NCBI GenBank assembly: GCA_048938385.1
Contig: JBHLMG010000031.1
Coordinates: forward strand, 1 to 21,402
Source of the DNA: Promethearchaeota archaeon
Lineage (GTDB): Archaea; Asgardarchaeota; Hermodarchaeia; Hermodarchaeales; Hermodarchaeaceae
DNA: 21,402 nt
Reading direction: 5' to 3'
In this document: positions 1,029-17,383 of the stretch, piece by piece
How positions within the stretch are numbered: the stretch's first letter is position 1
Layout of the letters: every line of letters begins with the position of its first letter
The notes under the pieces: generated by a model
Told to the model about the DNA's origin: nothing
Database searches by the model: none
Seen by the model: only the letters and a program-made list of their open reading frames with translations
Made by a program: the position numbers and the translations under genes

Positions 1029-1981
1029 GCTTTCACACCCTTTTTGGTTTTGATGGCATTAACATTGATGGCTTTCTTGAAGGTGGATGCTGCTAAGCTG
1101 AACCGGAGGTAGGTGCCGACGAGGTCGGGGATTTCTTTGACGATTTCTTCGGCGGGAGGTGCTTGGGTGGGGTCTTGGACGACGACGCTGCCGATGGCGC
1201 CAATCATTTTGGCGGCTTGATCGTCAACGGCTTCGGTGGGACCGAAACAGCCGCGGCAGGGGGTGAGGGCCGTGGGGCAGCGGGCTTCGCAGCCGCCTTG
1301 GGTGACGGGACCCATGCATTGGAAGCCTTGTTCGAGCAGGCAGCGTTCGGGGATGATTTTCTTGGTGCTCCAGCGTTTGAAGTTGGTGACGCTTTTTTCT
1401 TCTTTGGCGAGTGGACATTGGTCGCAGACGGTTTTGGGTTCGAGTTTGAACTCTCTGCCTTCGAGGAGGCAGGTGACGAGTTCGGCGATGAGCTTGGGTG
1501 GGGGTGGACAACCGGGGAGGATGTAGTCGACTTTAACATAGTCGCTGATGGGGTGGAGTTCATCAAGAATGGGAGGGACGACTTTGTGGGGGATGACACC
1601 TTTGGGGTTGACGGTGCTTTTGGTGTTGATGTAGACTTCTTTGAGGATTTCTTCCTTAGGATGGAGGTTGGCTAATCCTGGTACGCCACCAAAGGCTGAG
1701 CAGGCACCGAAGGCGACGAGGATTTGGCTGCGTTCGCGCATTTTGTGGAGGAGTTCGACTTGCTCTTCGTTGCGAACACCGCCGGAGACGAAACCGACGG
1801 TGACCCCTTCTTCAGGGGGTTCGCGGAAGTCCATGAGGACTTGGATATACTTGAGGTCGATGGCATCCAGGACGCCAGGCAGGGCCTGGTGGAGGTCGAG
1901 GATGGCGATTTCGCAGCCTGAGCAGATGCTGAGCGTTTCGACGGCGAGGGATGGTTTGGTCATCTTATTGGGGTCCTCCAT
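1025..1981 (-). CDS. mvhG: [NiFe]-hydrogenase small subunit MvhG
   Basis: CSGC, GACSAFGG, PGCPP, CDQC, CLLEQGFQCMGP, CEARCP and CRGCFG Fe-S motifs; lies between mvhD and mvhA. Start may be 1981 or 1963. Confidence 0.95.
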   Translation of the reverse strand: MEDPNKMTKPSLAVETLSICSGCEIAILDLHQALPGVLDAIDLKYIQVLMDFREPPEEGVTVGFVSGGVRNEEQVELLHKMRERSQILVAFGACSAFGGVPGLANLHPKEEILKEVYINTKSTVNPKGVIPHKVVPPILDELHPISDYVKVDYILPGCPPPPKLIAELVTCLLEGREFKLEPKTVCDQCPLAKEEKSVTNFKRWSTKKIIPERCLLEQGFQCMGPVTQGGCEARCPTALTPCRGCFGPTEAVDDQAAKMIGAIGSVVVQDPTQAPPAEEIVKEIPDLVGTYLRFSLAASTFKKAINVNAIKTKKGVKA

Positions 1982-2395: not shown

Positions 2396-4366
2396 TTACT
2401 TCGCTTCCTGAAAGAGGGCATCGAGTTGGGCGATGATTTGCTCCATAGTGAAGTGTTGCGGGGCAATGGCTTCGTTGGGACAGGCCGCAGCGCAGGTACC
2501 ACAGCCCTTGCATTGGGCTTCGGTGACCTGAGCACGGTTGTCTACGACTTTCACGGCGCCATAGGGACAGGAGGCTTCGCAGATTCCACAGCCTGCGCAG
2601 AGGTCTTCGTTGACCACAGCAGCGTAGGGTTGGACTGCGACATGTCCAACGGTCACCATGGCGAGGGCACTAGCAGCAGCACCTTTCGCTTGAGCGACGG
2701 AGTCGGGGATATCCTTGGGTCCTTGAGCGGCACCAGCAATGAAAATCCCGTCAGTATTGGTTTCAACGGGGCGCAACTTGGGGTGGGCTTCTAAGAAGAA
2801 ACCGTCGGCGCTGCGTTGGATGCCTAGGACTCGAGCGAGTTCGGCTTGATTCTGGGGTGCTTCGATTCCGCAGGAGAGCACGACAATATCAGCTTCTGCT
2901 TCTACGGGCTGACCGAGGAAGGTGTCTTCGGCACGGACAACGAGACTGTCGGATTCGAAGGATTCCCGAACTTCGGATACACGACCTCGTACAAAGGTGA
3001 CGCCGTACTCTCGTGCAGTAGTTTCGTAGAATTCTTCATAACCTTTCCCAAAGGCACGCATATCAATGTAAAAAATCGTGACCTTAACATCGGGGTACTT
3101 CTCACGGATCTGCCGGGCCTGTTTCAGAGCAGCCATGCAGCAGACTCGAGAACAATAGCTGTTGTACCGTTCGTTCCGTGATCCGACGCATTGAATGTAG
3201 GCGATGTGTTTGGGTTTCTTCATGGTGGAGGGGCGGATAATTTTGCCTTCTGTGGGTCCTGCGGCGCTTAGCATTCGTTCCATTTCAAGGTTCGACATGA
3301 CATCGGGGTACTTGCCATACCCGTATTCGAGTTGTTTCATGGCATCGAACAATTCAAAGCCGGTGGTCACGATGATGGCTCCCACCTCCAGTTCGACGAT
3401 TTCCGGCTTCATTTCATAATCAATGGCTTCCGCCTCGCAGGCATCCTTGCATTTCCCACAGGCAATTGGTGTCATACCTAGGCAGTGATCGGTGTCGATG
3501 ACATACGCGTTAGGCACGGCTTGGGCGAATGGAATGTAGATTGCCTTCCGCCACCCTAACCCTGCATTAAACTCGTCTGGCACATTTACCTGACAAACTT
3601 CCAAGCAGTCCGCGCAAGCGGTACACTTGTCTTCGATGACATACCGGGGCTTCCGTTCTACTTTGACCTTGAAGTTGCCCACAAATCCATTAACTTCACG
3701 AACCTCACTGTAGGTCATCAACTCGATGTTCGGATGTTGCCCTACTAAGCTCATCTTCGGGGTCAGAATACAACTACTACAATCCAAAGTCGGAAACGTC
3801 TTATCGAGTTGAGCCATGTGCCCACCGATGCTCGGTTCTTTTTCAACGAGATAGACTTTGTAGCCCGCATCCGCGATGTCGAGCGCTGCTTGGATACCAG
3901 CGATGCCAGCGCCAACAACGAGGACATTAGCCTTGACATCGACTTCTTTTTGTTCGAGGGGCTCAAGTTTGGCAGCCCGAGCGACTGCCATTTTGACGAG
4001 GTCTTTTGCTTTTTCGAGAGCGGCTTCTTCTTCATGGGTATGGACCCAGCTGCAGTGTTCCCGGATGTTTGACATGTCAAAAAAGAAGGGGTTCAGTCCC
4101 ATGCTTTCGAGGACGCGGCGGAAGGTGGGTTCGTGAAGGGTTGGGCTGCAAGCGGCGACGACGACGCGGTTGAGGCCTTTTTCCCGGGCGCGTTCTCGAA
4201 TGAGGTCTTGTCCGGGGTCAGAGCACATGTAGCGGTAATCCTCGGCTACCGTGACATGGGGGAGGGTGGCGGCGTATTCGACGAGTTTGGGGATGTCGAT
4301 GACGCCGGCTATGTTTGAGCCGCAATGGCAGATGAAAACGCCGATTTTCGGTTCTTCTGTGGACAT
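2396..4366 (-). CDS. hdrA: Heterodisulfide reductase flavoprotein subunit A (electron-bifurcating)
   Basis: ICHCGSNI, VAACSP, NIREHCSW, GAGIAG FAD motif, LDKTFPTLDCSSC, inserted ferredoxin, CVGSR/YCSRVCC, C-terminal 2x[4Fe-4S]. ATG 4366 has a GGAGTGA SD; alternative GTG at 4378. Confidence 0.96.
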   Translation of the reverse strand: MSTEEPKIGVFICHCGSNIAGVIDIPKLVEYAATLPHVTVAEDYRYMCSDPGQDLIRERAREKGLNRVVVAACSPTLHEPTFRRVLESMGLNPFFFDMSNIREHCSWVHTHEEEAALEKAKDLVKMAVARAAKLEPLEQKEVDVKANVLVVGAGIAGIQAALDIADAGYKVYLVEKEPSIGGHMAQLDKTFPTLDCSSCILTPKMSLVGQHPNIELMTYSEVREVNGFVGNFKVKVERKPRYVIEDKCTACADCLEVCQVNVPDEFNAGLGWRKAIYIPFAQAVPNAYVIDTDHCLGMTPIACGKCKDACEAEAIDYEMKPEIVELEVGAIIVTTGFELFDAMKQLEYGYGKYPDVMSNLEMERMLSAAGPTEGKIIRPSTMKKPKHIAYIQCVGSRNERYNSYCSRVCCMAALKQARQIREKYPDVKVTIFYIDMRAFGKGYEEFYETTAREYGVTFVRGRVSEVRESFESDSLVVRAEDTFLGQPVEAEADIVVLSCGIEAPQNQAELARVLGIQRSADGFFLEAHPKLRPVETNTDGIFIAGAAQGPKDIPDSVAQAKGAAASALAMVTVGHVAVQPYAAVVNEDLCAGCGICEASCPYGAVKVVDNRAQVTEAQCKGCGTCAAACPNEAIAPQHFTMEQIIAQLDALFQEAK

Positions 4367-4374
4367 TCTGTGGT

Positions 4375-4938
4375 TCACTCCGGTTTGGGTGCTGGGTTCA
4401 TGGCCGTCTGTCCGAGTTTCATACCTTCAGCGAAGGCGCGGAGGTTGAGTTCCCGGTACTTCGGGAAGGCCTTGGCAATGGCTTTCTCCATTGCTTGGGG
4501 AGTGACGGCTTTGGTGATTGCGGTGAAGGCACCAAGCATGACGACATTGGTCACGAGGGGGTTTTTCAACACCTTGTGGGCTGTTGCCGCAGCTGGTATC
4601 TCATACAGCTTTATGCCCGGTTTAATGTCTCCCGCTTTCACCAAGTCTGAGTCGATGATGAGGATGCTTCCGTCGACGAGGTCGTCTTTGTATTTGTGAA
4701 AGGCGTCATTGGAGAGGGCGACCATGATCTGAGGGGTGAGGACGAGGGGATAGTCGACGGGGGTGTCGGAGATAATGATTTCGGCTTTGCAAGCGCTTCC
4801 TCGGGATTCGGGGCCATAGGAGGCGGTTTGAACGGCTTCTTTACCATCATGGATGGAGGCAGCTTCGCCGATTATGACAGCGGATTTAATGACGCCTTGT
4901 CCACCGAGCCCGCCGAGCCGAATTTCTATGCGTGTCAT
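4375..4938 (-). CDS. korC: 2-oxoacid:ferredoxin oxidoreductase gamma subunit
   Basis: IRLGGLGGQG, YGPESRG, NVVMLGA and N-x-x-AF-x-x-G motifs typical of POR/KOR gamma subunits. Confidence 0.92.
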   Translation of the reverse strand: MTRIEIRLGGLGGQGVIKSAVIIGEAASIHDGKEAVQTASYGPESRGSACKAEIIISDTPVDYPLVLTPQIMVALSNDAFHKYKDDLVDGSILIIDSDLVKAGDIKPGIKLYEIPAAATAHKVLKNPLVTNVVMLGAFTAITKAVTPQAMEKAIAKAFPKYRELNLRAFAEGMKLGQTAMNPAPKPE

Positions 4939-4944
4939 GCTTCA

Positions 4945-5790
4945 TCACTTCTGTTGGACTTTTTCTGCTTGCGCTCCAAGGAGCTCGGTGAATTCGGGTT
5001 TTTCTGTATCGATGAATTCACCGCACACAATCTTGGTGCGATAGTCAATTTCCGCTTTCATGGGATCTGTGAAGTTACGAATGACTGAGATTTCTCGATA
5101 TCGTTTCATCACATCGAGGCCTGAGCCATGACGGTTGTAACGGTCATACAGGGTGGGGCAGGGTGAGACAACTTCGATGAACTTGAAGCCTGGTTTTTGA
5201 AGGGCTTTTTCGATGGATTTGGTCATTCGGCGAGCATGGAGGGCGGTCCATCGGGCAACATAGACCGCTCCGGAAGCGGCAGCGACACTGACGAGGTTGA
5301 AAGGGTGTTCAATGTTACCATCAGGAGAGGTAACGGTGATTGCTGAATCGGGGGTGGTGGGGCCCATTTGGCCACCGGTCATGCCGTAGTTGAAGTTGTT
5401 GACGCATAGGACAAGCATGTCGACATTTCGGCGCGCCGCGTGGATGAAGTGGTTTCCACCAATGGCGAAAAGGTCGCCATCACCACTGATTACGACTGGC
5501 GTTAGATTCGGATTCGCAACTTTAACGCCGGTTGCGAAGGCGATGGCTCGACCGTGGGTGGTGTGGTAGCTATCAGCGTTAAAGTATCCGCTGGCCCGTC
5601 CGGTGCAACCGATTCCACTAATAACGACGAGGCGGTCCATATCAAATTGTAGGCTGCGCAGAGCGATGGCAAAGGCTTGCAGCACAGTTCCGATGCCACA
5701 AGCGCTGCAAAAGATGTGGGGAAGCCGATCTCGACGGATGTATTCTAAAATGGGATGTTCATCTTGTATGGTGCGAGTTGTTACAGTCAA
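4945..5790 (-). CDS. korB: 2-oxoacid:ferredoxin oxidoreductase beta (TPP-binding) subunit
   Basis: FCSACG, SGIGC, HTTHGRA, GDGD...NN TPP motif, YGMTGGQ, SPCPT. TTG start overlaps the korA stop, with a GGAGG SD. Confidence 0.93.
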   Translation of the reverse strand: MTVTTRTIQDEHPILEYIRRDRLPHIFCSACGIGTVLQAFAIALRSLQFDMDRLVVISGIGCTGRASGYFNADSYHTTHGRAIAFATGVKVANPNLTPVVISGDGDLFAIGGNHFIHAARRNVDMLVLCVNNFNYGMTGGQMGPTTPDSAITVTSPDGNIEHPFNLVSVAAASGAVYVARWTALHARRMTKSIEKALQKPGFKFIEVVSPCPTLYDRYNRHGSGLDVMKRYREISVIRNFTDPMKAEIDYRTKIVCGEFIDTEKPEFTELLGAQAEKVQQK

Positions 5791-6938
5791 TTGACATGCC
5801 TCCGAATTTCTTTCACCAGTTCATCGGGAGTGTGTGGAGTGCCACATACCCGAGGAATGAAATGGACGGGTACTTCGTTGCGAATGATGCGTTCTACTTC
5901 GCCAACGAGTTGTCCATAATTCAATTCTGCCACCACTACATGTTGAGCGTTGGTGGCGGCTTCTTTCAGTTGTTCTTTGGGAAACGGCCAAACGGTAATG
6001 GGGCGGAACAGTCCAATTTTCACGCCGTTGGCGCGGGCATCCTTTATGGCGCGCATGGCTGTGCGGGCTTCACCGCCGTAAGCGACTAGGAGGATTTCAG
6101 CGTCTTCGGTTTCGGTGGATTTCGCCATGGTGATTTTGTGAGCGTTTTTACGGATTTTTTCGCAAAGTCGTGGTACCAAGGCCAGTTGGGCTTCTTCGGT
6201 CATTTCAGGATAGCCCCGTTCGTCGTGAGTTAATCCAGTAGCGTAGAAGTGATATCCTTCACCGAAGTTCGCCATGGGAGGAACGAGGTCTTCATCGGCC
6301 TTGAAGGGTAGGTAATCTTCGGGTTCCACAACGGGTTTCTTACGGTTGATAATTTTAATTTCCTCTTCGGGGGGAATGATGAGGCGTTCCCGCATGTGCC
6401 CGATAATCTCATCTGCTAGCACGAAGGTGGGGACGCGGTACTGTTCAGAGAGATTGAAGGCTTTGATAGTGAGATCAAACATTTCCTGCACCGAAGAGGG
6501 AATGAGGGCAATGATTTCGTAATCGCCATGACTGCCCCATTTTGCTTGCATGATATCGCTTTGACTAGCTTCGGTAGGTTGCCCTGTTGATGGGCCTCCA
6601 CGCATGACATTGACCAAGACCATGGGGGCTTCGGTCATCACGGCTAGCCCAATGGTTTCGTTCATCAGACTGACGCCAGGACCCGAGGTGGCCGTCATGG
6701 CTTTAATGCCGGCATAGGAGGCGCCGACCACGGCGGTGCAGGAGGCGATTTCATCTTCCATTTGGATGTATCGCCCACCAATCCGAGGGAGCCGATAGGC
6801 CATGCGTTCGGAGATTTCTGTGGCCGGAGTGATGGGGTAACCAGCGAAGAAGCGGCAGCCAGCAGCGAGGGCGCCTTCAGCAGCTGCGATGTCGCCCTGA
6901 GTAAACATTTCTCCGGTGAGAACGGCTCTATGCATCAT
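5787..6938 (-). CDS. korA: 2-oxoacid:ferredoxin oxidoreductase alpha subunit
   Basis: AGYPITPATE, QMEDE, TATSGPG, MRGGPSTG. KorA-like; substrate cannot be determined from sequence. Confidence 0.93.
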   Translation of the reverse strand: MMHRAVLTGEMFTQGDIAAAEGALAAGCRFFAGYPITPATEISERMAYRLPRIGGRYIQMEDEIASCTAVVGASYAGIKAMTATSGPGVSLMNETIGLAVMTEAPMVLVNVMRGGPSTGQPTEASQSDIMQAKWGSHGDYEIIALIPSSVQEMFDLTIKAFNLSEQYRVPTFVLADEIIGHMRERLIIPPEEEIKIINRKKPVVEPEDYLPFKADEDLVPPMANFGEGYHFYATGLTHDERGYPEMTEEAQLALVPRLCEKIRKNAHKITMAKSTETEDAEILLVAYGGEARTAMRAIKDARANGVKIGLFRPITVWPFPKEQLKEAATNAQHVVVAELNYGQLVGEVERIIRNEVPVHFIPRVCGTPHTPDELVKEIRRHVN

Positions 6939-10164: not shown

Positions 10165-10169
10165 AAAAA
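10165..10169 (-). terminator. Oligo-T tract downstream of tRNA-Leu, possible terminator
   Basis: TTTTT on the minus strand about 15 nt after the encoded CCA. Confidence 0.4.
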
Positions 10170-10201
10170 GGTAACGATAGCAAGTGGTGCGGGGGGAGGG
10201 A

Positions 10202-10228
10202 ATTTCGGACCTCGCATCGCGTGGTTCT
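10202..10228 (-). other. tRNA intron 4 (position 59/60, 27 nt)
   Basis: GAGGG-TTCG-AA|A-GA...TC-CGAA-AT|T-CCCTC; perfect BHB on the T-stem. Confidence 0.92.
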
Positions 10229-10259
10229 TTCGAACCCTCGAACCGCTGCCGGACAGGAT

Positions 10260-10281
10260 TTCTCCATCTGCCTGGTCAGAT
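10260..10281 (-). other. tRNA intron 3 (canonical position 37/38, 22 nt)
   Basis: CTCA-AG|A-TCTG..CAGA-t-GGAG-AA|A-TCCTG; relaxed BHB with an A.G mismatch. Confidence 0.9.
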
Positions 10282-10288
10282 CTTGAGT

Positions 10289-10318
10289 AACGCCGTCAAC
10301 CTGCCTTCGCAGGTGACT
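10289..10318 (-). other. tRNA intron 2 (position 30/31, 30 nt)
   Basis: GG-CGCA-GG|A-[GTCACCTGC-gaag-GCAGGTTGAC]-GGCG-TT|A-CT; BHB with one A.G mismatch in the central helix. Confidence 0.85.
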
Positions 10319-10343
10319 CCTGCGCCGTTGACCAGGCTTGGCT

Positions 10344-10365
10344 TTAGGGTCTAGCTGTGCTAGAA
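10344..10365 (-). other. tRNA intron 1 (position 8/9, 22 nt)
   Basis: GGC-GGGG-GT|T-TCTAGC-aca-GCTAGA-CCCT-AA|A-GCC forms a complete BHB; removal restores U8-A9-G10. Confidence 0.85.
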
Positions 10366-10444
10366 ACCCCCGCCGCCTAGTCTAGCGAGATGGACCTATG
10401 TACAGGCCCCCGCACGGGAGCTGTGTCAATGAATGCCGTCTGTG

Positions 10445-10454
10445 TATTTTAAAG
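10445..10454 (-). promoter_or_regulatory. Candidate TATA box for tRNA-Leu
   Basis: CTTTAAAATA on the minus strand; standard spacing puts the TSS near 10420-10425, giving a leader of about 50 nt. Confidence 0.55.
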
Positions 10455-10507
10455 ATTTGTCATGCGGGCTTTGGGATTTCTCTTCTTTGAATGGCACAAC
10501 TAAAGAC

Positions 10508-10516
10508 CTTTATATC
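10508..10516 (+). promoter_or_regulatory. Candidate TATA box for gcvH
   Basis: CTTTATATC preceded by A-rich AAAGAC, about 50 nt upstream of ATG 10566. Confidence 0.5.
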
Positions 10517-10565
10517 GGGAAAAGCGAACACGAATTTAATTAAATGCTTTGAGGCTGTTGTGACG

Positions 10566-10958
10566 ATGTCAAAGATTCCCTCAGACTTATTTTATACAAA
10601 AGAACACGAATGGGTCCGTCAAGAAAAGGACGCCATACGTGTAGGCATTACTGATTATGCCCAAGAAGAACTGCACGAAATTGTGATGGTCGAACTTCCT
10701 TCGGTGGGAACTGAAGTTAAAGTCGGTTCGATTTTTGGCACGGTCGACTCAGTGAAGGCCACCTCAGAACTCTTTTCGCCTATTTCTGGAAAGGTTGTAG
10801 AGGTTAATGATAAACTCGAGGAGGCACCAGAGCTAGTCAACAACGATCCCTACGGGGATGGATGGATGATTGTGATTCAGCCCACTAACCCGGACGAGGT
10901 TAAGGCTCTGATGAATCCTGATGATTACAAGAAGTTCCTAGCCGAACTGGTGAAATAA
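10566..10958 (+). CDS. gcvH: Glycine cleavage system H protein (lipoyl carrier)
   Basis: YTKEHEW, GITDYAQ, DSVKA lipoyl-Lys motif, VNNDPYGDGW. Start set at ATG 10566; the track's longer start spans the candidate promoter. Confidence 0.96.
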   Translation: MSKIPSDLFYTKEHEWVRQEKDAIRVGITDYAQEELHEIVMVELPSVGTEVKVGSIFGTVDSVKATSELFSPISGKVVEVNDKLEEAPELVNNDPYGDGWMIVIQPTNPDEVKALMNPDDYKKFLAELVK

Positions 10959-10987
10959 CCAGAAACCAGCGTGGTCGGTACGAGAAC

Positions 10988-10996
10988 TTTTTTAAG
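10988..10996 (+). promoter_or_regulatory. Candidate TATA box for aglB
   Basis: TTTTTTAAG about 50 nt upstream of ATG 11046, which has an AGGTGA SD. Confidence 0.45.
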
Positions 10997-11045
10997 CAGA
11001 CGGAATTATCAAGGCACCACTTGTCCTGCCAATATAGGTGACCGA

Positions 11046-14000
11046 ATGTCAGTGCGTGATTCGCTCCGGTCCATTGGATCTTTCTTACGGCGACACATCA
11101 TTGGTCCCCAGATGGAAATCTCAAAGGCCAATGTGATGGCAGCGTTCGCTTTACTGGTTATTGCAGTCATTGCCCTCATGATTCGGCTCTTGCCTATGAT
11201 TGGATTCGAAACGATGGTTCGAGCCTTCGACCCATGGTACAACTTTCGTGAAGTCGAATTCATTATCGAGAATGGCTTTCAAGCTTGGTTTGGATGGTAT
11301 GATAATACTTCCTGGGTACCTTATGGACGCAATATTCCACGATCGTCTTATCCTGGAATTCCATTCACCACAGCCTTTATGTTTCTCGCCCTTCAGAGTG
11401 TGGGAATTCAGATTGACCTGTTGACTCTCGCAGTCCTGTTCCCCGCCATCATGGGCGTGCTTGGCGTAATCGCCATGTATTTTCTAGGAGTAGAAGTCGC
11501 CTCTAAGGAGATTGGATTGTTTGCTTCCTTTTTCATGGCCATCATTCCCGCCTATACGCAACGAACAATCGCAGGATTCTTCGATAACGAAGCGATTGGT
11601 ATCGTAGCAATTATTCTTGTTCTCTTCTTCTTTCTGCGCGCCCTACGAAAGGGCTCAATTGCCTCGGCAATACTCGGTGGTCTATCCCTAGGGTATCTTT
11701 CTGCGAGTTGGAGTGTTTATTTGTACATGTTCCAGATCCTCGCAATCTTCGCACTCCTCATGATCTTAATTCGACGCTATTCGCGTCGACTTTTACTTGC
11801 CTATACCGGAGTGGTGCTCACGGGGATGGTGATTGCAGTATGCATTCCCCGTATTGGGCCTGACTTTCCCACCTCTACGACAGGATTAATCCCGTTAGGT
11901 GTTTTTGCGCTCTTATTACTTGTCGAATTTAGCCGATCCTTCCGCCTTTCCGAAATCAATCTGCCCGGGGTCATAGAAGGTTTCTCGACTCGTATTCGAC
12001 CTTATTTGGCATACATCTTTGGTGCTATGTGCGCGCTCATCGTCGTCGGTCTTGGATACCTGTTCCAGTCAGGCCTCATCATTAACCTAGGAACAGCCAC
12101 TCCGAGCACAGGAATTTTTGGAAGCCTTGCTGGTAAATTCTATACGGTTATTGATCCCCTAATTCGACAGAACGCGTTTCTCCTTGCCTCAGTAGGCGAA
12201 CACCTTCCCGCACCCTGGGCTACCTTCTGGTACAATCTCACCTTTCTTGTCCTGCTTATGCCCTTTGGATTCTACATAGCTTTTCGTCGAGAACGAGAAA
12301 CCGATATTCTCCTCATCATTTTTGCCCTGACCGCGCTTTATTTCAGCGGATCCATGATTCGATTGGTCCTGTTGCTTGCTCCCGCAGCCGCCATCCTTGG
12401 TGCCTACGGATTGATGATGGCTATCCGTCCTTTGCGCCCGATTTTCTGGCAACGCCCCATTTTAACCCGGCGTCGCCGCCGTATCACTCCACCAGCTTCA
12501 CGAAGTTACGCCACGACAGCATACCTGTTTCTCATCATCCTGCTCCTCGGTGCAACCTTTACATCACTGCAAGCCGTGGATCAAATGGGTGCGCCCGAAA
12601 TTACTCCAGGAGGACGAGATGCCAACCAAAATCCCTTTGACTTTAGAGACTATCTGGAAGCCTTTTCCTGGATGCGCTATCATACTCCCCAAGACTCGAT
12701 CTTTGTGTCTTGGTGGGATTATGGTTACTGGACTCGAGAAGTGGGAGATCGGCGAACTGTGGTGGATAATGCTACAATAAATAAAACCCAGATAGGATGG
12801 GTTGGCCGAATGTTCCTGGAAACTGATCCAGTGGAAGCTTTGCGGATATGTCAACGCTTTGGCGTGGATTACGTCTTCGTGCATTTCGGACTAGGTAGGA
12901 GCTCCTTTAGCGGTGACGAAGGGAAATGGCAGTGGATGATACGGATCGCTGGAGAAGTCTTTGGCGATGAAGTACCCCCTGAGAGCGCCTTCTGGAACGA
13001 AACCGAAGGGTGGTACAAACCAGCCTACTGGCAGACCCTCATCTACAACATGCTCTGGGTAAACTCCACGGCTATTGGAGCAGATGGTAACCGCCCCAAG
13101 GACGAAGAGGGAAACCTAGGACCAATGCCTGGGTACACCATTGAACCAGGTGGAACCATCTTCAGCCTCTTTGAACCAGTGTACTTCTCTCAGACCCAGT
13201 TGATGAAGATCTTCAAATGCAACTACACCTATCTAGAAAGCTCAATGACTTTAGGCGGTGCCAGCGCATACGCGGTCCACCAAGGCGAAACAGGCATTCG
13301 AGATCTTTCCTCAGTGGTTGTTGAGGTGAAAAACACAGGACAACATTCCTTCGTCATTGACTCGGCCGATATCGGATACTGGGATGCCCGGAACAATAGG
13401 TATTCGGTGGACACATTCTCCAATTTGTGGCTTACCACAACCACAGGAACGCTCCAAGTGGAGCCTGGCGAGACTACGATGTTGCACATACGCGCCCAGC
13501 CTTTCTTCACTGTCGGCACAGATGTAAATGTGACCGTTAAAGCCGCTGGATTTCGACCCACACTGAATGCTACCATTACAGTTCCAGTACGCTCAGCTCC
13601 TGCCTATGAGTTGAGTGCTATCACGGCCAATTCCTACGCTTATGCAAATGGCACAATCTACATTGAGCTCGAAAACACAGGTGAAGGCTATTTAGAAATC
13701 GACAAAGAAGCCACCATCGAGGATACTGACATCCCCCTTGAGGGAACCAGTGACCGCGGTCGCCTCCTCTTCAAAGGGGAACGTATCGGTTTTAGGTTAG
13801 ATGCGGCCGCGTACGGTTTATCCCTTAGTCTTGGAGAAATAATCTCGGTGAGGGTGCATTACATGAGTTTCCTTCCAACCTATTCGGGGTTGAATGTGTC
13901 ATTTTCTCTAACAGTGCAGGCAACTCCCAGCCCCTCAGTGCCCCAATCATCGGTGATTTCGGATTCGCAGGTTGAACGACTCCAGGCGGACCTTCTACCT

Positions 14001-14096
14001 GAGATTACTGGTCCTGATTATTCTATTAGGCCGTTTCCATTCACGGTTTTTGTCGAAAGTAGTGCCTTTTTCATTTTACGGCGATACGAGCCGTAA
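11046..14096 (+). CDS. aglB: Oligosaccharyltransferase AglB/STT3 with a long C-terminal extension
   Basis: FDPWYN, GFFDNE, SVGEH, WWDYG, DNAT and DEGKWQWM (DK motif); multi-TM N-terminal half. Confidence 0.95.
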   Translation: MSVRDSLRSIGSFLRRHIIGPQMEISKANVMAAFALLVIAVIALMIRLLPMIGFETMVRAFDPWYNFREVEFIIENGFQAWFGWYDNTSWVPYGRNIPRSSYPGIPFTTAFMFLALQSVGIQIDLLTLAVLFPAIMGVLGVIAMYFLGVEVASKEIGLFASFFMAIIPAYTQRTIAGFFDNEAIGIVAIILVLFFFLRALRKGSIASAILGGLSLGYLSASWSVYLYMFQILAIFALLMILIRRYSRRLLLAYTGVVLTGMVIAVCIPRIGPDFPTSTTGLIPLGVFALLLLVEFSRSFRLSEINLPGVIEGFSTRIRPYLAYIFGAMCALIVVGLGYLFQSGLIINLGTATPSTGIFGSLAGKFYTVIDPLIRQNAFLLASVGEHLPAPWATFWYNLTFLVLLMPFGFYIAFRRERETDILLIIFALTALYFSGSMIRLVLLLAPAAAILGAYGLMMAIRPLRPIFWQRPILTRRRRRITPPASRSYATTAYLFLIILLLGATFTSLQAVDQMGAPEITPGGRDANQNPFDFRDYLEAFSWMRYHTPQDSIFVSWWDYGYWTREVGDRRTVVDNATINKTQIGWVGRMFLETDPVEALRICQRFGVDYVFVHFGLGRSSFSGDEGKWQWMIRIAGEVFGDEVPPESAFWNETEGWYKPAYWQTLIYNMLWVNSTAIGADGNRPKDEEGNLGPMPGYTIEPGGTIFSLFEPVYFSQTQLMKIFKCNYTYLESSMTLGGASAYAVHQGETGIRDLSSVVVEVKNTGQHSFVIDSADIGYWDARNNRYSVDTFSNLWLTTTTGTLQVEPGETTMLHIRAQPFFTVGTDVNVTVKAAGFRPTLNATITVPVRSAPAYELSAITANSYAYANGTIYIELENTGEGYLEIDKEATIEDTDIPLEGTSDRGRLLFKGERIGFRLDAAAYGLSLSLGEIISVRVHYMSFLPTYSGLNVSFSLTVQATPSPSVPQSSVISDSQVERLQADLLPEITGPDYSIRPFPFTVFVESSAFFILRRYEP

Positions 14097-16147: not shown

Positions 16148-17383
16148 TTATTTTGCTAGTTCTGCTACTCCTTTACAGAGCAGTAGCATAGCTGCGGAGA
16201 GAGGAAGGTCCTTTTTAATTTCGCGCATTGCGGGGTACTGTACTCCTTCCAAGGTAAACGCAGGAGCATCATGAATAAAGACTGTAGCAGTTCCCGAAAA
16301 TACCTGCGCGTTACGAAAGGGATCAAACCCCTCAAGAGACGCGCTGTCCAAAGGCTTGACGAGAAATCCCGTCTTTCCATTAAGCGATCCTGGTAATCGT
16401 ATAAGCCGATGGATGTCTGTAGTTACCGGTTCATCGACGATTGCGCTGAGGGATTCAATGACATGTTGGGTTAAAACTTGCCATGCTTTGGACCCGATGC
16501 CTTTAGGGGTGATATACCTGGCTGGTGTTGCGCTGAGATTTTTCCGGATTGTGGGAGCGTTTTGCTGAAGGATTCGGGCTTGATTTGCTCTTAGACCAGG
16601 GATTTGGTGTAATTGTTGAGGGGCTTGGAAGAGAGAGAGAAGGCCTTGGGCAAGTTTGCTTTCCCAACCAGGGATTCGAGGGTCTGGTCCTTTCGGGAGT
16701 CCATTGCTGTCATCTGTGAAGCCGTAGTGTTGGAGATCGATACCAATACCGGAGATGTAATCAACAATTTCTCGACGCTCTTGCGAACCTAAACTGTGAA
16801 GTTCAGGCGTGAAACAATGGATGTGATAACCACGGTGTCCGGAAAATACGAACATGATTTCGGAGCGAGAGAGCCCTAGCTCTGGAATGAGGAAGGTCTC
16901 AACAATTTTGACGGCTTCATCCTTGGCTTTGCCTAGGCACTCCTCGCACATCCATTTGAGTTCTTGAAGGCGGTTTCCTGTGCAGGTGGGGCATCGTTCG
17001 GGTCGACGCCCGTGATCACGATGGTTACAATCCTGACACCACCAGGCATCGTGTTGTTGTTGACAGGGTAAATCGTAATGGTCGGCATCGATGTCGAAAA
17101 TTAAATCCGCTCCACGCCAACCTTTCAGCGGCATTTGTGGGGCGTCTGGTTCGTCATAATAGGCTGCAGAATAGAAGGTGTGAGCTGGTCCTTCATTAAC
17201 CATGAATTGGAGGAGTTCCTTCTGACTGACAAAGCTTGTATGGCGTAGGGCGCCTTCGCGGGAGAACCAGAAGAAGGCAAATTCTCGGTGTTCAAATTGA
17301 GGTGGTAGAGTGAGATCGGTCCCGTGTTGCTGATAGTATTGGACAAATTGGTTAATGAGGAACTTCAGGGTTTGGATGACCAT
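16148..17383 (-). CDS. priS: DNA primase small (catalytic) subunit
   Basis: REF, DLIFDIDAD, FSGHRGYH, DEPVTTDIHRLIRLPGSLN. Confidence 0.96.
   Translation of the reverse strand: MVIQTLKFLINQFVQYYQQHGTDLTLPPQFEHREFAFFWFSREGALRHTSFVSQKELLQFMVNEGPAHTFYSAAYYDEPDAPQMPLKGWRGADLIFDIDADHYDLPCQQQHDAWWCQDCNHRDHGRRPERCPTCTGNRLQELKWMCEECLGKAKDEAVKIVETFLIPELGLSRSEIMFVFSGHRGYHIHCFTPELHSLGSQERREIVDYISGIGIDLQHYGFTDDSNGLPKGPDPRIPGWESKLAQGLLSLFQAPQQLHQIPGLRANQARILQQNAPTIRKNLSATPARYITPKGIGSKAWQVLTQHVIESLSAIVDEPVTTDIHRLIRLPGSLNGKTGFLVKPLDSASLEGFDPFRNAQVFSGTATVFIHDAPAFTLEGVQYPAMREIKKDLPLSAAMLLLCKGVAELAK

Follow-up and report, generated by a model that had tools for sequence, protein, structure and literature searches.

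The window, by which we mean the whole 21,402-nt stretch of DNA that was analysed, contains a tRNA-Leu(CAA) gene that is interrupted by four introns. The first intron lies at position 8/9, the splice motif around it extends into the leader, and the leader carries a second, spare copy of the 5' acceptor strand. We consider it likely that the locus is a single functional gene with five exons and four introns spliced by EndA and RtcB, that the motif at 8/9 depends on the leader, and that the first intron is spliced before RNase P acts, with the 3' acceptor strand most probably held by the spare copy.

For a protein-spliced tRNA intron to persist, the RNA around it must be able to fold into the splice motif, and an intron at position 8/9 makes the precursor give up its acceptor and D stems. 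The gene described here suggests how this cost may be met: bases of the leader complete the motif, and the spare strand may keep the 3' end occupied.

Exons and introns of the gene

We read the two ends of the tRNA from the minus strand, which places the gene at positions 10373-10185 of the window. The 5' strand G-C-G-G-G-G-G, followed by U, is found at 10373-10366, and its complement, followed by A and CCA, at 10195-10185. Once the four inserts at positions 8/9, 30/31, 37/38 and 59/60 are taken out, 88 nt remain, which ARAGORN folds into a perfect tRNA-Leu(CAA) of class II; its acceptor stem has 7 bp, its variable arm is long and its CCA is encoded. In the raw window, neither ARAGORN nor Rfam called an RNA gene anywhere. 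A BLAST search with the spliced sequence found no second Leu(CAA) gene in the whole assembly (2.48 Mb, 51 contigs, about 90% complete). The parts of the gene are listed in the direction of transcription; the register of exon 2 was set by the helix that adjoins the splice sites.

10366 to 10373, minus strand: exon 1, nt 1-8, comprising the real 5' acceptor strand (G1-G7 at 10373-10367) and U8 (10366)
10344 to 10365, minus strand: intron 1, 22 nt, position 8/9, strict BHB
10319 to 10343, minus strand: exon 2, nt 9-30, with 25 bases owing to extra numbered D-loop positions
10289 to 10318, minus strand: intron 2, 30 nt, position 30/31, relaxed BHB (A28-G mismatch in the central helix)
10282 to 10288, minus strand: exon 3, 7 nt from A31 to G37, with the anticodon CAA within it
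10260 to 10281, minus strand: intron 3, 22 nt, canonical position 37/38
10229 to 10259, minus strand: exon 4, nt 38-59, including the long variable arm
10202 to 10228, minus strand: intron 4, 27 nt, T-loop position 59/60, strict BHB
10185 to 10201, minus strand: exon 5, nt 60-76, comprising the 3' strand of the T-stem, the 3' acceptor strand (10195-10189), A73 and the encoded CCA

The host, an Asgard-type archaeon rich in introns, has in its genome two ORFs with an EndA domain (188 and 219 aa), one RtcB and one RNase P RNA. Two different EndA subunits, as predicted from these ORFs, would fit a heterotetramer of broad specificity.

For comparison, we used 19 genomes of the class, which belong to one family and two genera (g1 and g2). 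The tRNA-Leu(CAA) gene was found in all 19 genomes. The design with four introns is kept in all 18 other genomes, except for one that is without intron 1. The 8/9 motif is present in 17 of the 18 orthologues; in the 17 full-length orthologues, all four inserts lie at the same places. The exception (locus L011, G002:C12, about 1500-1674, minus strand) has kept inserts 2-4. It reads the predicted U8/A9 junction letter for letter and may serve as the closest available stand-in for the spliced sequence.

The intron at 8/9 is also found in a paralogous gene. The tRNA-Leu(UAA) gene of the window's genome (locus L029, G000 contig C23, about 187,587-187,440, minus strand) has its sole insert at this position and the same spare copy 41 nt upstream. 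We retrieved nine such UAA genes in total. In those of genus g2 (L022-L025), the 8/9 intron is 14-16 nt long and has an inner helix of 2 bp.

The three remaining introns were examined in the same orthologues. Intron 2 keeps three of its four central pairs in 17/17 genes, and a constant A-G mismatch in the central helix makes its motif a relaxed one. In the 17-sequence alignment, four pairs of its inner helix show changes on both sides, and introns 2 and 4 both resemble intron 1 in how their helices are kept. The fourth central pair of intron 3 is A-G in the window's genome and A-U in nine orthologues. For intron 4, the T-stem serves as the outer helix and nt 54-57 form the central helix, which is 100% paired. 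Other registers, 31/32 for intron 2 and 38/39 or 39/40 for intron 3, were dropped because 30/31 and 37/38 alone put the inner helix beside the bulges. The motifs of introns 2 and 3 share bases 27-28 and 32-33 (C32-U33) and cannot form together. These two introns would thus have to be removed one after the other, probably intron 2 before intron 3.

The splice motif at position 8/9 and the leader

Intron 1 is surrounded by a complete h-B-H-B-h' motif with splice points between U8 and A9. Its landmarks are the following.

10374, minus strand: G-1, the last base of the leader
10343, minus strand: A9
10340 to 10342, minus strand: G10-C12 (G10 at 10342, C12 at 10340)
10374 to 10380, minus strand: leader nt -7 to -1, which extends the outer helix by pairing with C12 and nt 15-19

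In the outer helix, G-1, G1 and C2 pair with C12, C11 and G10. The central helix is formed by G3-G6 and the intron bases CCCU, which are the four bases before the last two of the intron. G7 U8 U on one strand and A A A9 on the other form the bulges, and the inner helix is the intron's own hairpin with 6 bp and a 3-nt loop. Cutting after the second base of each bulge joins U8 exactly to A9. The earlier note had drawn this motif, with nt -1 to 2 and 10-12 as outer helix and G3-G6 as central helix, and had drawn it correctly; the motif is complete and conserved, and only the start coordinate of 10341 needs correction, as it falls one base short of C12 (10340). That note had further held that the motif cannot coexist with the acceptor stem and the D-stem. 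Since the motif uses nt -1 to 6 and 10-12, this applies to both native stems; however, an acceptor-like helix can still form via the spare copy in the leader.

The 50-nt stretch from -7 to nt 20 has a folding energy of -24.7 kcal/mol (z = -3.0 compared to shuffles). The free-energy minimum corresponds to a register that is slipped by one G, and the canonical 3-4-3 register lies 1.1 kcal/mol higher. We scanned the whole genome for the intron 1 motif in a tRNA context and obtained the leucine gene together with five matches whose flanks are unlike tRNA. When an upstream repeat of nt 1-7 was required in place of the tRNA context, there were 28 matches, and a tRNA D-arm follows only in the leucine gene and its UAA paralogue.

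We then compared the motif among 26 genes, namely 17 CAA orthologues and 9 UAA paralogues, which make up 25 distinct sequences in the joint alignment. Checked directly, each of the 26 genes has 4/4 central pairs, at least 3 bp in its outer helix and 2-7 bp in its inner helix. The three helices are paired in 100% of cells in the 17-sequence CAA alignment, and pairing is likewise full in the 25 distinct CAA and UAA sequences. This pairing is kept with varying sequence. On the intron side of the central helix, C changes to U opposite G among the 17 CAA orthologues, and in the inner helix both partners are replaced in two pairs (A-U by C-G and C-G by G-C). The observed covariation score was reached by 0 of 500 shuffles, a count that is not a probability as the sequences are related. 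Intron 1 therefore shows what is expected of a BHB intron: two 3-nt bulges on opposite strands with a 4-bp helix between them, the flanking helices, a cloverleaf that is restored when the intron is taken out, a conserved structure with varying sequence, and EndA and RtcB in the host.

The outer helix does not end at G-1 but goes on across a two-base bulge (A13, A14). Among the 25 distinct sequences, the pairs -1:12 and -3:16 are G-C in all, -2:15 is C-G or U-G in all, and -4:17 is G-C in 19 and A-U in five, with one mismatch. The A-U form of -4:17 is limited to one clade and thus represents one compensatory event. These alignments support the view that the leader is part of the selected structure. 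The conserved leader pairing, together with the compensatory change, also supports splicing of intron 1 before 5' trimming, and the same is suggested by the motif itself, of which only two outer pairs would be left after the RNase P cut. As the fold needs the untrimmed leader and excludes the native stems, intron 1 would be cut from a conformer other than the cloverleaf before RNase P acts. The earlier note had proposed this order from the single sequence, and the conserved leader pairs -4 to -1 now lend it indirect support.

In genus g1, most CAA leaders additionally contain a GCC-rich stretch that resembles nt 10-17 (columns 37-42 of alignment A1, e.g. L006). Pairing of this stretch with -4 to +2 is possible and would be in competition with the outer helix; the window's gene lacks the stretch.

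A spare acceptor strand in the leader

Upstream of the splice motif, the leader contains the following features.

10407 to 10413, minus strand: spare copy of acceptor nt 1-7 (GCGGGGG), an exact repeat 40 nt upstream of the real 5' end
10392 to 10409, minus strand: leader hairpin directly after and overlapping the spare copy, present in all orthologues with sequences that differ between the two genera
10445 to 10453, minus strand: TATA-like promoter box, 40 nt upstream of the spare copy

All 17 CAA orthologues and all 9 UAA paralogues carry the spare copy without a single change. The eight bases that precede it, and much of the spacer of 34-43 nt, differ among the genes. In all 17 orthologues with two copies, 35-40 nt separate the TATA-like box from the spare copy downstream of it; in the intron-less L011, the distance from the box to the true 5' end is 39 nt. 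For other tRNA genes of the window's genome, this distance is 29-42 nt for most of the boxes found. The distance from box to copy is thus the normal distance from promoter to tRNA, and the spare copy is very probably transcribed. Judged by this spacing, it would occupy the usual start position of a tRNA, just downstream of a putative transcription start.

We next consider with what the spare copy may pair. In the RNAalifold consensus fold of whole precursors, its partner is the 3' acceptor strand, and the splice motif retains the real strand. In the partition functions, the spare copy has a pairing probability of 0.95-0.99 with the 3' strand and the real strand has none. Neither the spare copy nor the 3' strand ever varies, so there is no covariation between them. 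When the copy was replaced by A and U, pairing of the intron to the real strand fell by more than 0.2 in 8 of the 26 genes (4/9 UAA, 4/17 CAA) and never rose. According to these models, the spare copy would give modest help to the pairing of the motif and would not be thermodynamically indispensable.

In the genes compared, the copy occurs together with the intron. Among about 44 tRNA genes from a T-arm scan of the window's genome, such a copy is confined to the two that have an 8/9 intron, and scans of this genome that looked for duplicated acceptor strands, in tRNA-His or elsewhere, returned nothing beyond the two Leu genes and noise. Across the comparison set, the copy is present in 26/26 genes with the intron and in 0/2 intron-less Leu genes (L011 and L020), all positives coming from a single gene lineage. 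As the CAA and UAA genes are paralogous, the link between copy and intron rests on one lineage and one loss. In the case of this loss, L011 has also been left with a single strand copy and no spacer. The sequence upstream of the L011 gene is similar to that upstream of the spare copy in the other genomes, for which reason the loss of the intron looks like a precise deletion or a gene conversion.

The pattern could also have arisen if the spare copy were a scar of the insert's origin, left by a target duplication or by a partial tandem duplication of the 5' part, and had no role in splicing. The spacer of 34-43 nt is indeed bounded by 7-nt direct repeats, the GCC-rich stretch in the leaders of genus g1 gives a further resemblance to a downstream part of the gene (nt 10-17), and the effect of the copy in the folding models is modest. 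However, the seven bases have stayed invariant in 26 genes from two genera and two paralogues amid diverged flanks, and the sole gene that lost the intron (L011, in G002) lost the copy too. We thus regard a mere scar as unlikely.

The two copies might, furthermore, have been assigned the wrong way round. The upstream copy would then be the true mature 5' strand, and the stretch that runs from a point inside the upstream copy to the corresponding point in the downstream copy would be a fifth, relaxed BHB intron, with the same mature sequence as the outcome. The bases in front of the two copies fit this view: the base before the real 5' end (10374) is always G and pairs with C12, whereas the base before the spare copy (10414) is a pyrimidine in 26/26 genes, as at an ordinary RNase P site. 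The upstream site thus looks more like an ordinary RNase P site than the real 5' end does, and the upstream copy stands at the normal distance from the promoter. In addition, a cut after nt 5 of each copy leaves 3/4 central pairs in most genes. However, both central strands would have the same sequence, which makes 4/4 pairs impossible, and the 3/4 pairs are explained by the GC palindrome alone. The flanking helices are missing or lack consistency, with an outer helix of no more than 0-1 bp in the majority of genes, and there is no one cut position that is best throughout. A fifth intron is therefore improbable. Lastly, a decaying pseudogene in which the inserts stay would explain why ARAGORN and Rfam report nothing at the locus, but it is highly improbable given that the exons show little or no variation across 18 genomes, in contrast to the intron loops, that every intron has kept its splice motif, and that this is the only Leu(CAA) gene found.

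Proposed order of processing and comparison to known tRNA introns

We thus favour a functional gene in which the leader serves the splicing of intron 1, and we infer for the spare copy the role of a placeholder in the following order of events. The primary transcript would begin a few bases before the spare copy, which would occupy the 3' acceptor strand by pairing. Around intron 1, the splice motif would be folded from the real strand, the last bases of the leader and nt 10-17; there, EndA would cut and RtcB would join U8 to A9. With its partner gone, the real strand, which is now contiguous with the D arm, would take over the 3' strand. RNase P would then take off the leader of roughly 45-50 nt. 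A stronger version is that the leader copy is a required cis-acting placeholder, which keeps the 3' strand engaged while introns within or beside the 5' acceptor strand present their splice motif and so enforces the sequence of splicing, refolding and RNase P cleavage, and that this reflects a general rule for where such introns persist in intron-rich archaea. This version is tentative, and we lean slightly against it.

Introns at many sites of archaeal tRNA genes have been described. The sites given in a 2014 review are 20/21, 22/23, 25/26, 29/30, 30/31, 45/46, 53/54, 56/57 and 59/60, with 3/4 as the extreme case (PMC4090602). Position 8/9 is not named among the intron sites of this review, in line with the earlier note, which did not count it among the known noncanonical sites; the site is not unique to this gene, however, as the tRNA-Leu(UAA) paralogue has it as well. 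The non-canonical BHB introns (Marck and Grosjean 2003; Sugahara 2008; PMC4090602) are likewise short inserts with a 3-4-3 motif that is partly made from exon bases. They are also removed by EndA and a ligase, lie outside the anticodon loop and can occur several times per gene, and the 3/4 intron of the Thermoproteales likewise lies in the 5' acceptor strand. Compared to these introns, the gene described here differs in the position at 8/9, in the leader bases that take part in the outer helix and in the conserved duplicate of the acceptor strand.

Sequence from outside the mature tRNA is also used in split and permuted tRNA genes (Randau 2005; Soma 2007; Chan 2011; PMC4033280), where it likewise builds the BHB and where the ends mature after splicing. 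In contrast to these genes, the gene in the window is contiguous, and its leader provides one part of a helix as well as a stand-in for the acceptor strand.

Genes with several introns have also been published for Asgard archaea. The papers on tRNA genes of Atabeyarchaeia, Freyarchaeia and Jordiarchaeia concern the same phylum, as judged by the kinship labels, and most of the tRNA genes in them are interrupted. These genes likewise contain up to four or five inserts, many of which are missed by standard software and which are enriched at BHB boundaries. A 2024 paper gives introns for 92-95% of the tRNA genes of Atabeyarchaeia and Freyarchaeia, in a table with columns for up to four per gene; in the Atabeyarchaeia-1 part of this table, none of the called introns is placed 8 nt from the start of its gene. 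The Asgard tRNA-intron papers make no mention of the leader, of the order relative to RNase P or of a duplicated acceptor strand, and a literature search that combined splice motif, leader, acceptor stem and RNase P returned general reviews only. Thus, four introns per gene are already known in Asgard archaea, whereas the 8/9 position, the outer helix built with the leader and the spare strand are undescribed in the literature searched.

If the proposed mechanism is true, the spare strand would add a cis-acting helper element to archaeal tRNA processing, and the order of processing would be fixed, with splicing before 5' trimming. This would also go some way to account for the failure of standard tRNA finders to detect genes of this kind in Asgard genomes. 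When we stripped strict BHB introns and then applied ARAGORN, few hidden tRNA genes were recovered, because many of the introns have relaxed motifs.

We made some further observations on the locus and its surroundings. On the minus strand, the 3' trailer at 10165-10178 ends in a T run that is probably a terminator; the trailer is conserved in most orthologues of genus g1. Elsewhere in the genome, ARAGORN reported a 'Leu(caa)' gene with an intron (G000 contig C35, 23852-23958), which we rejected since the sequence is that of a class I tRNA with CAC in its anticodon loop; it is probably a tRNA-Val(CAC) with a canonical intron. The neighbouring ORFs in the window match HdrA2 (2396-4378), the alpha subunit of a 2-oxoacid:acceptor oxidoreductase (5787-6938), GcvH (10491-10958), an STT3-type oligosaccharyl transferase (10971-14096) and the primase small subunit PriS (16148-17383).
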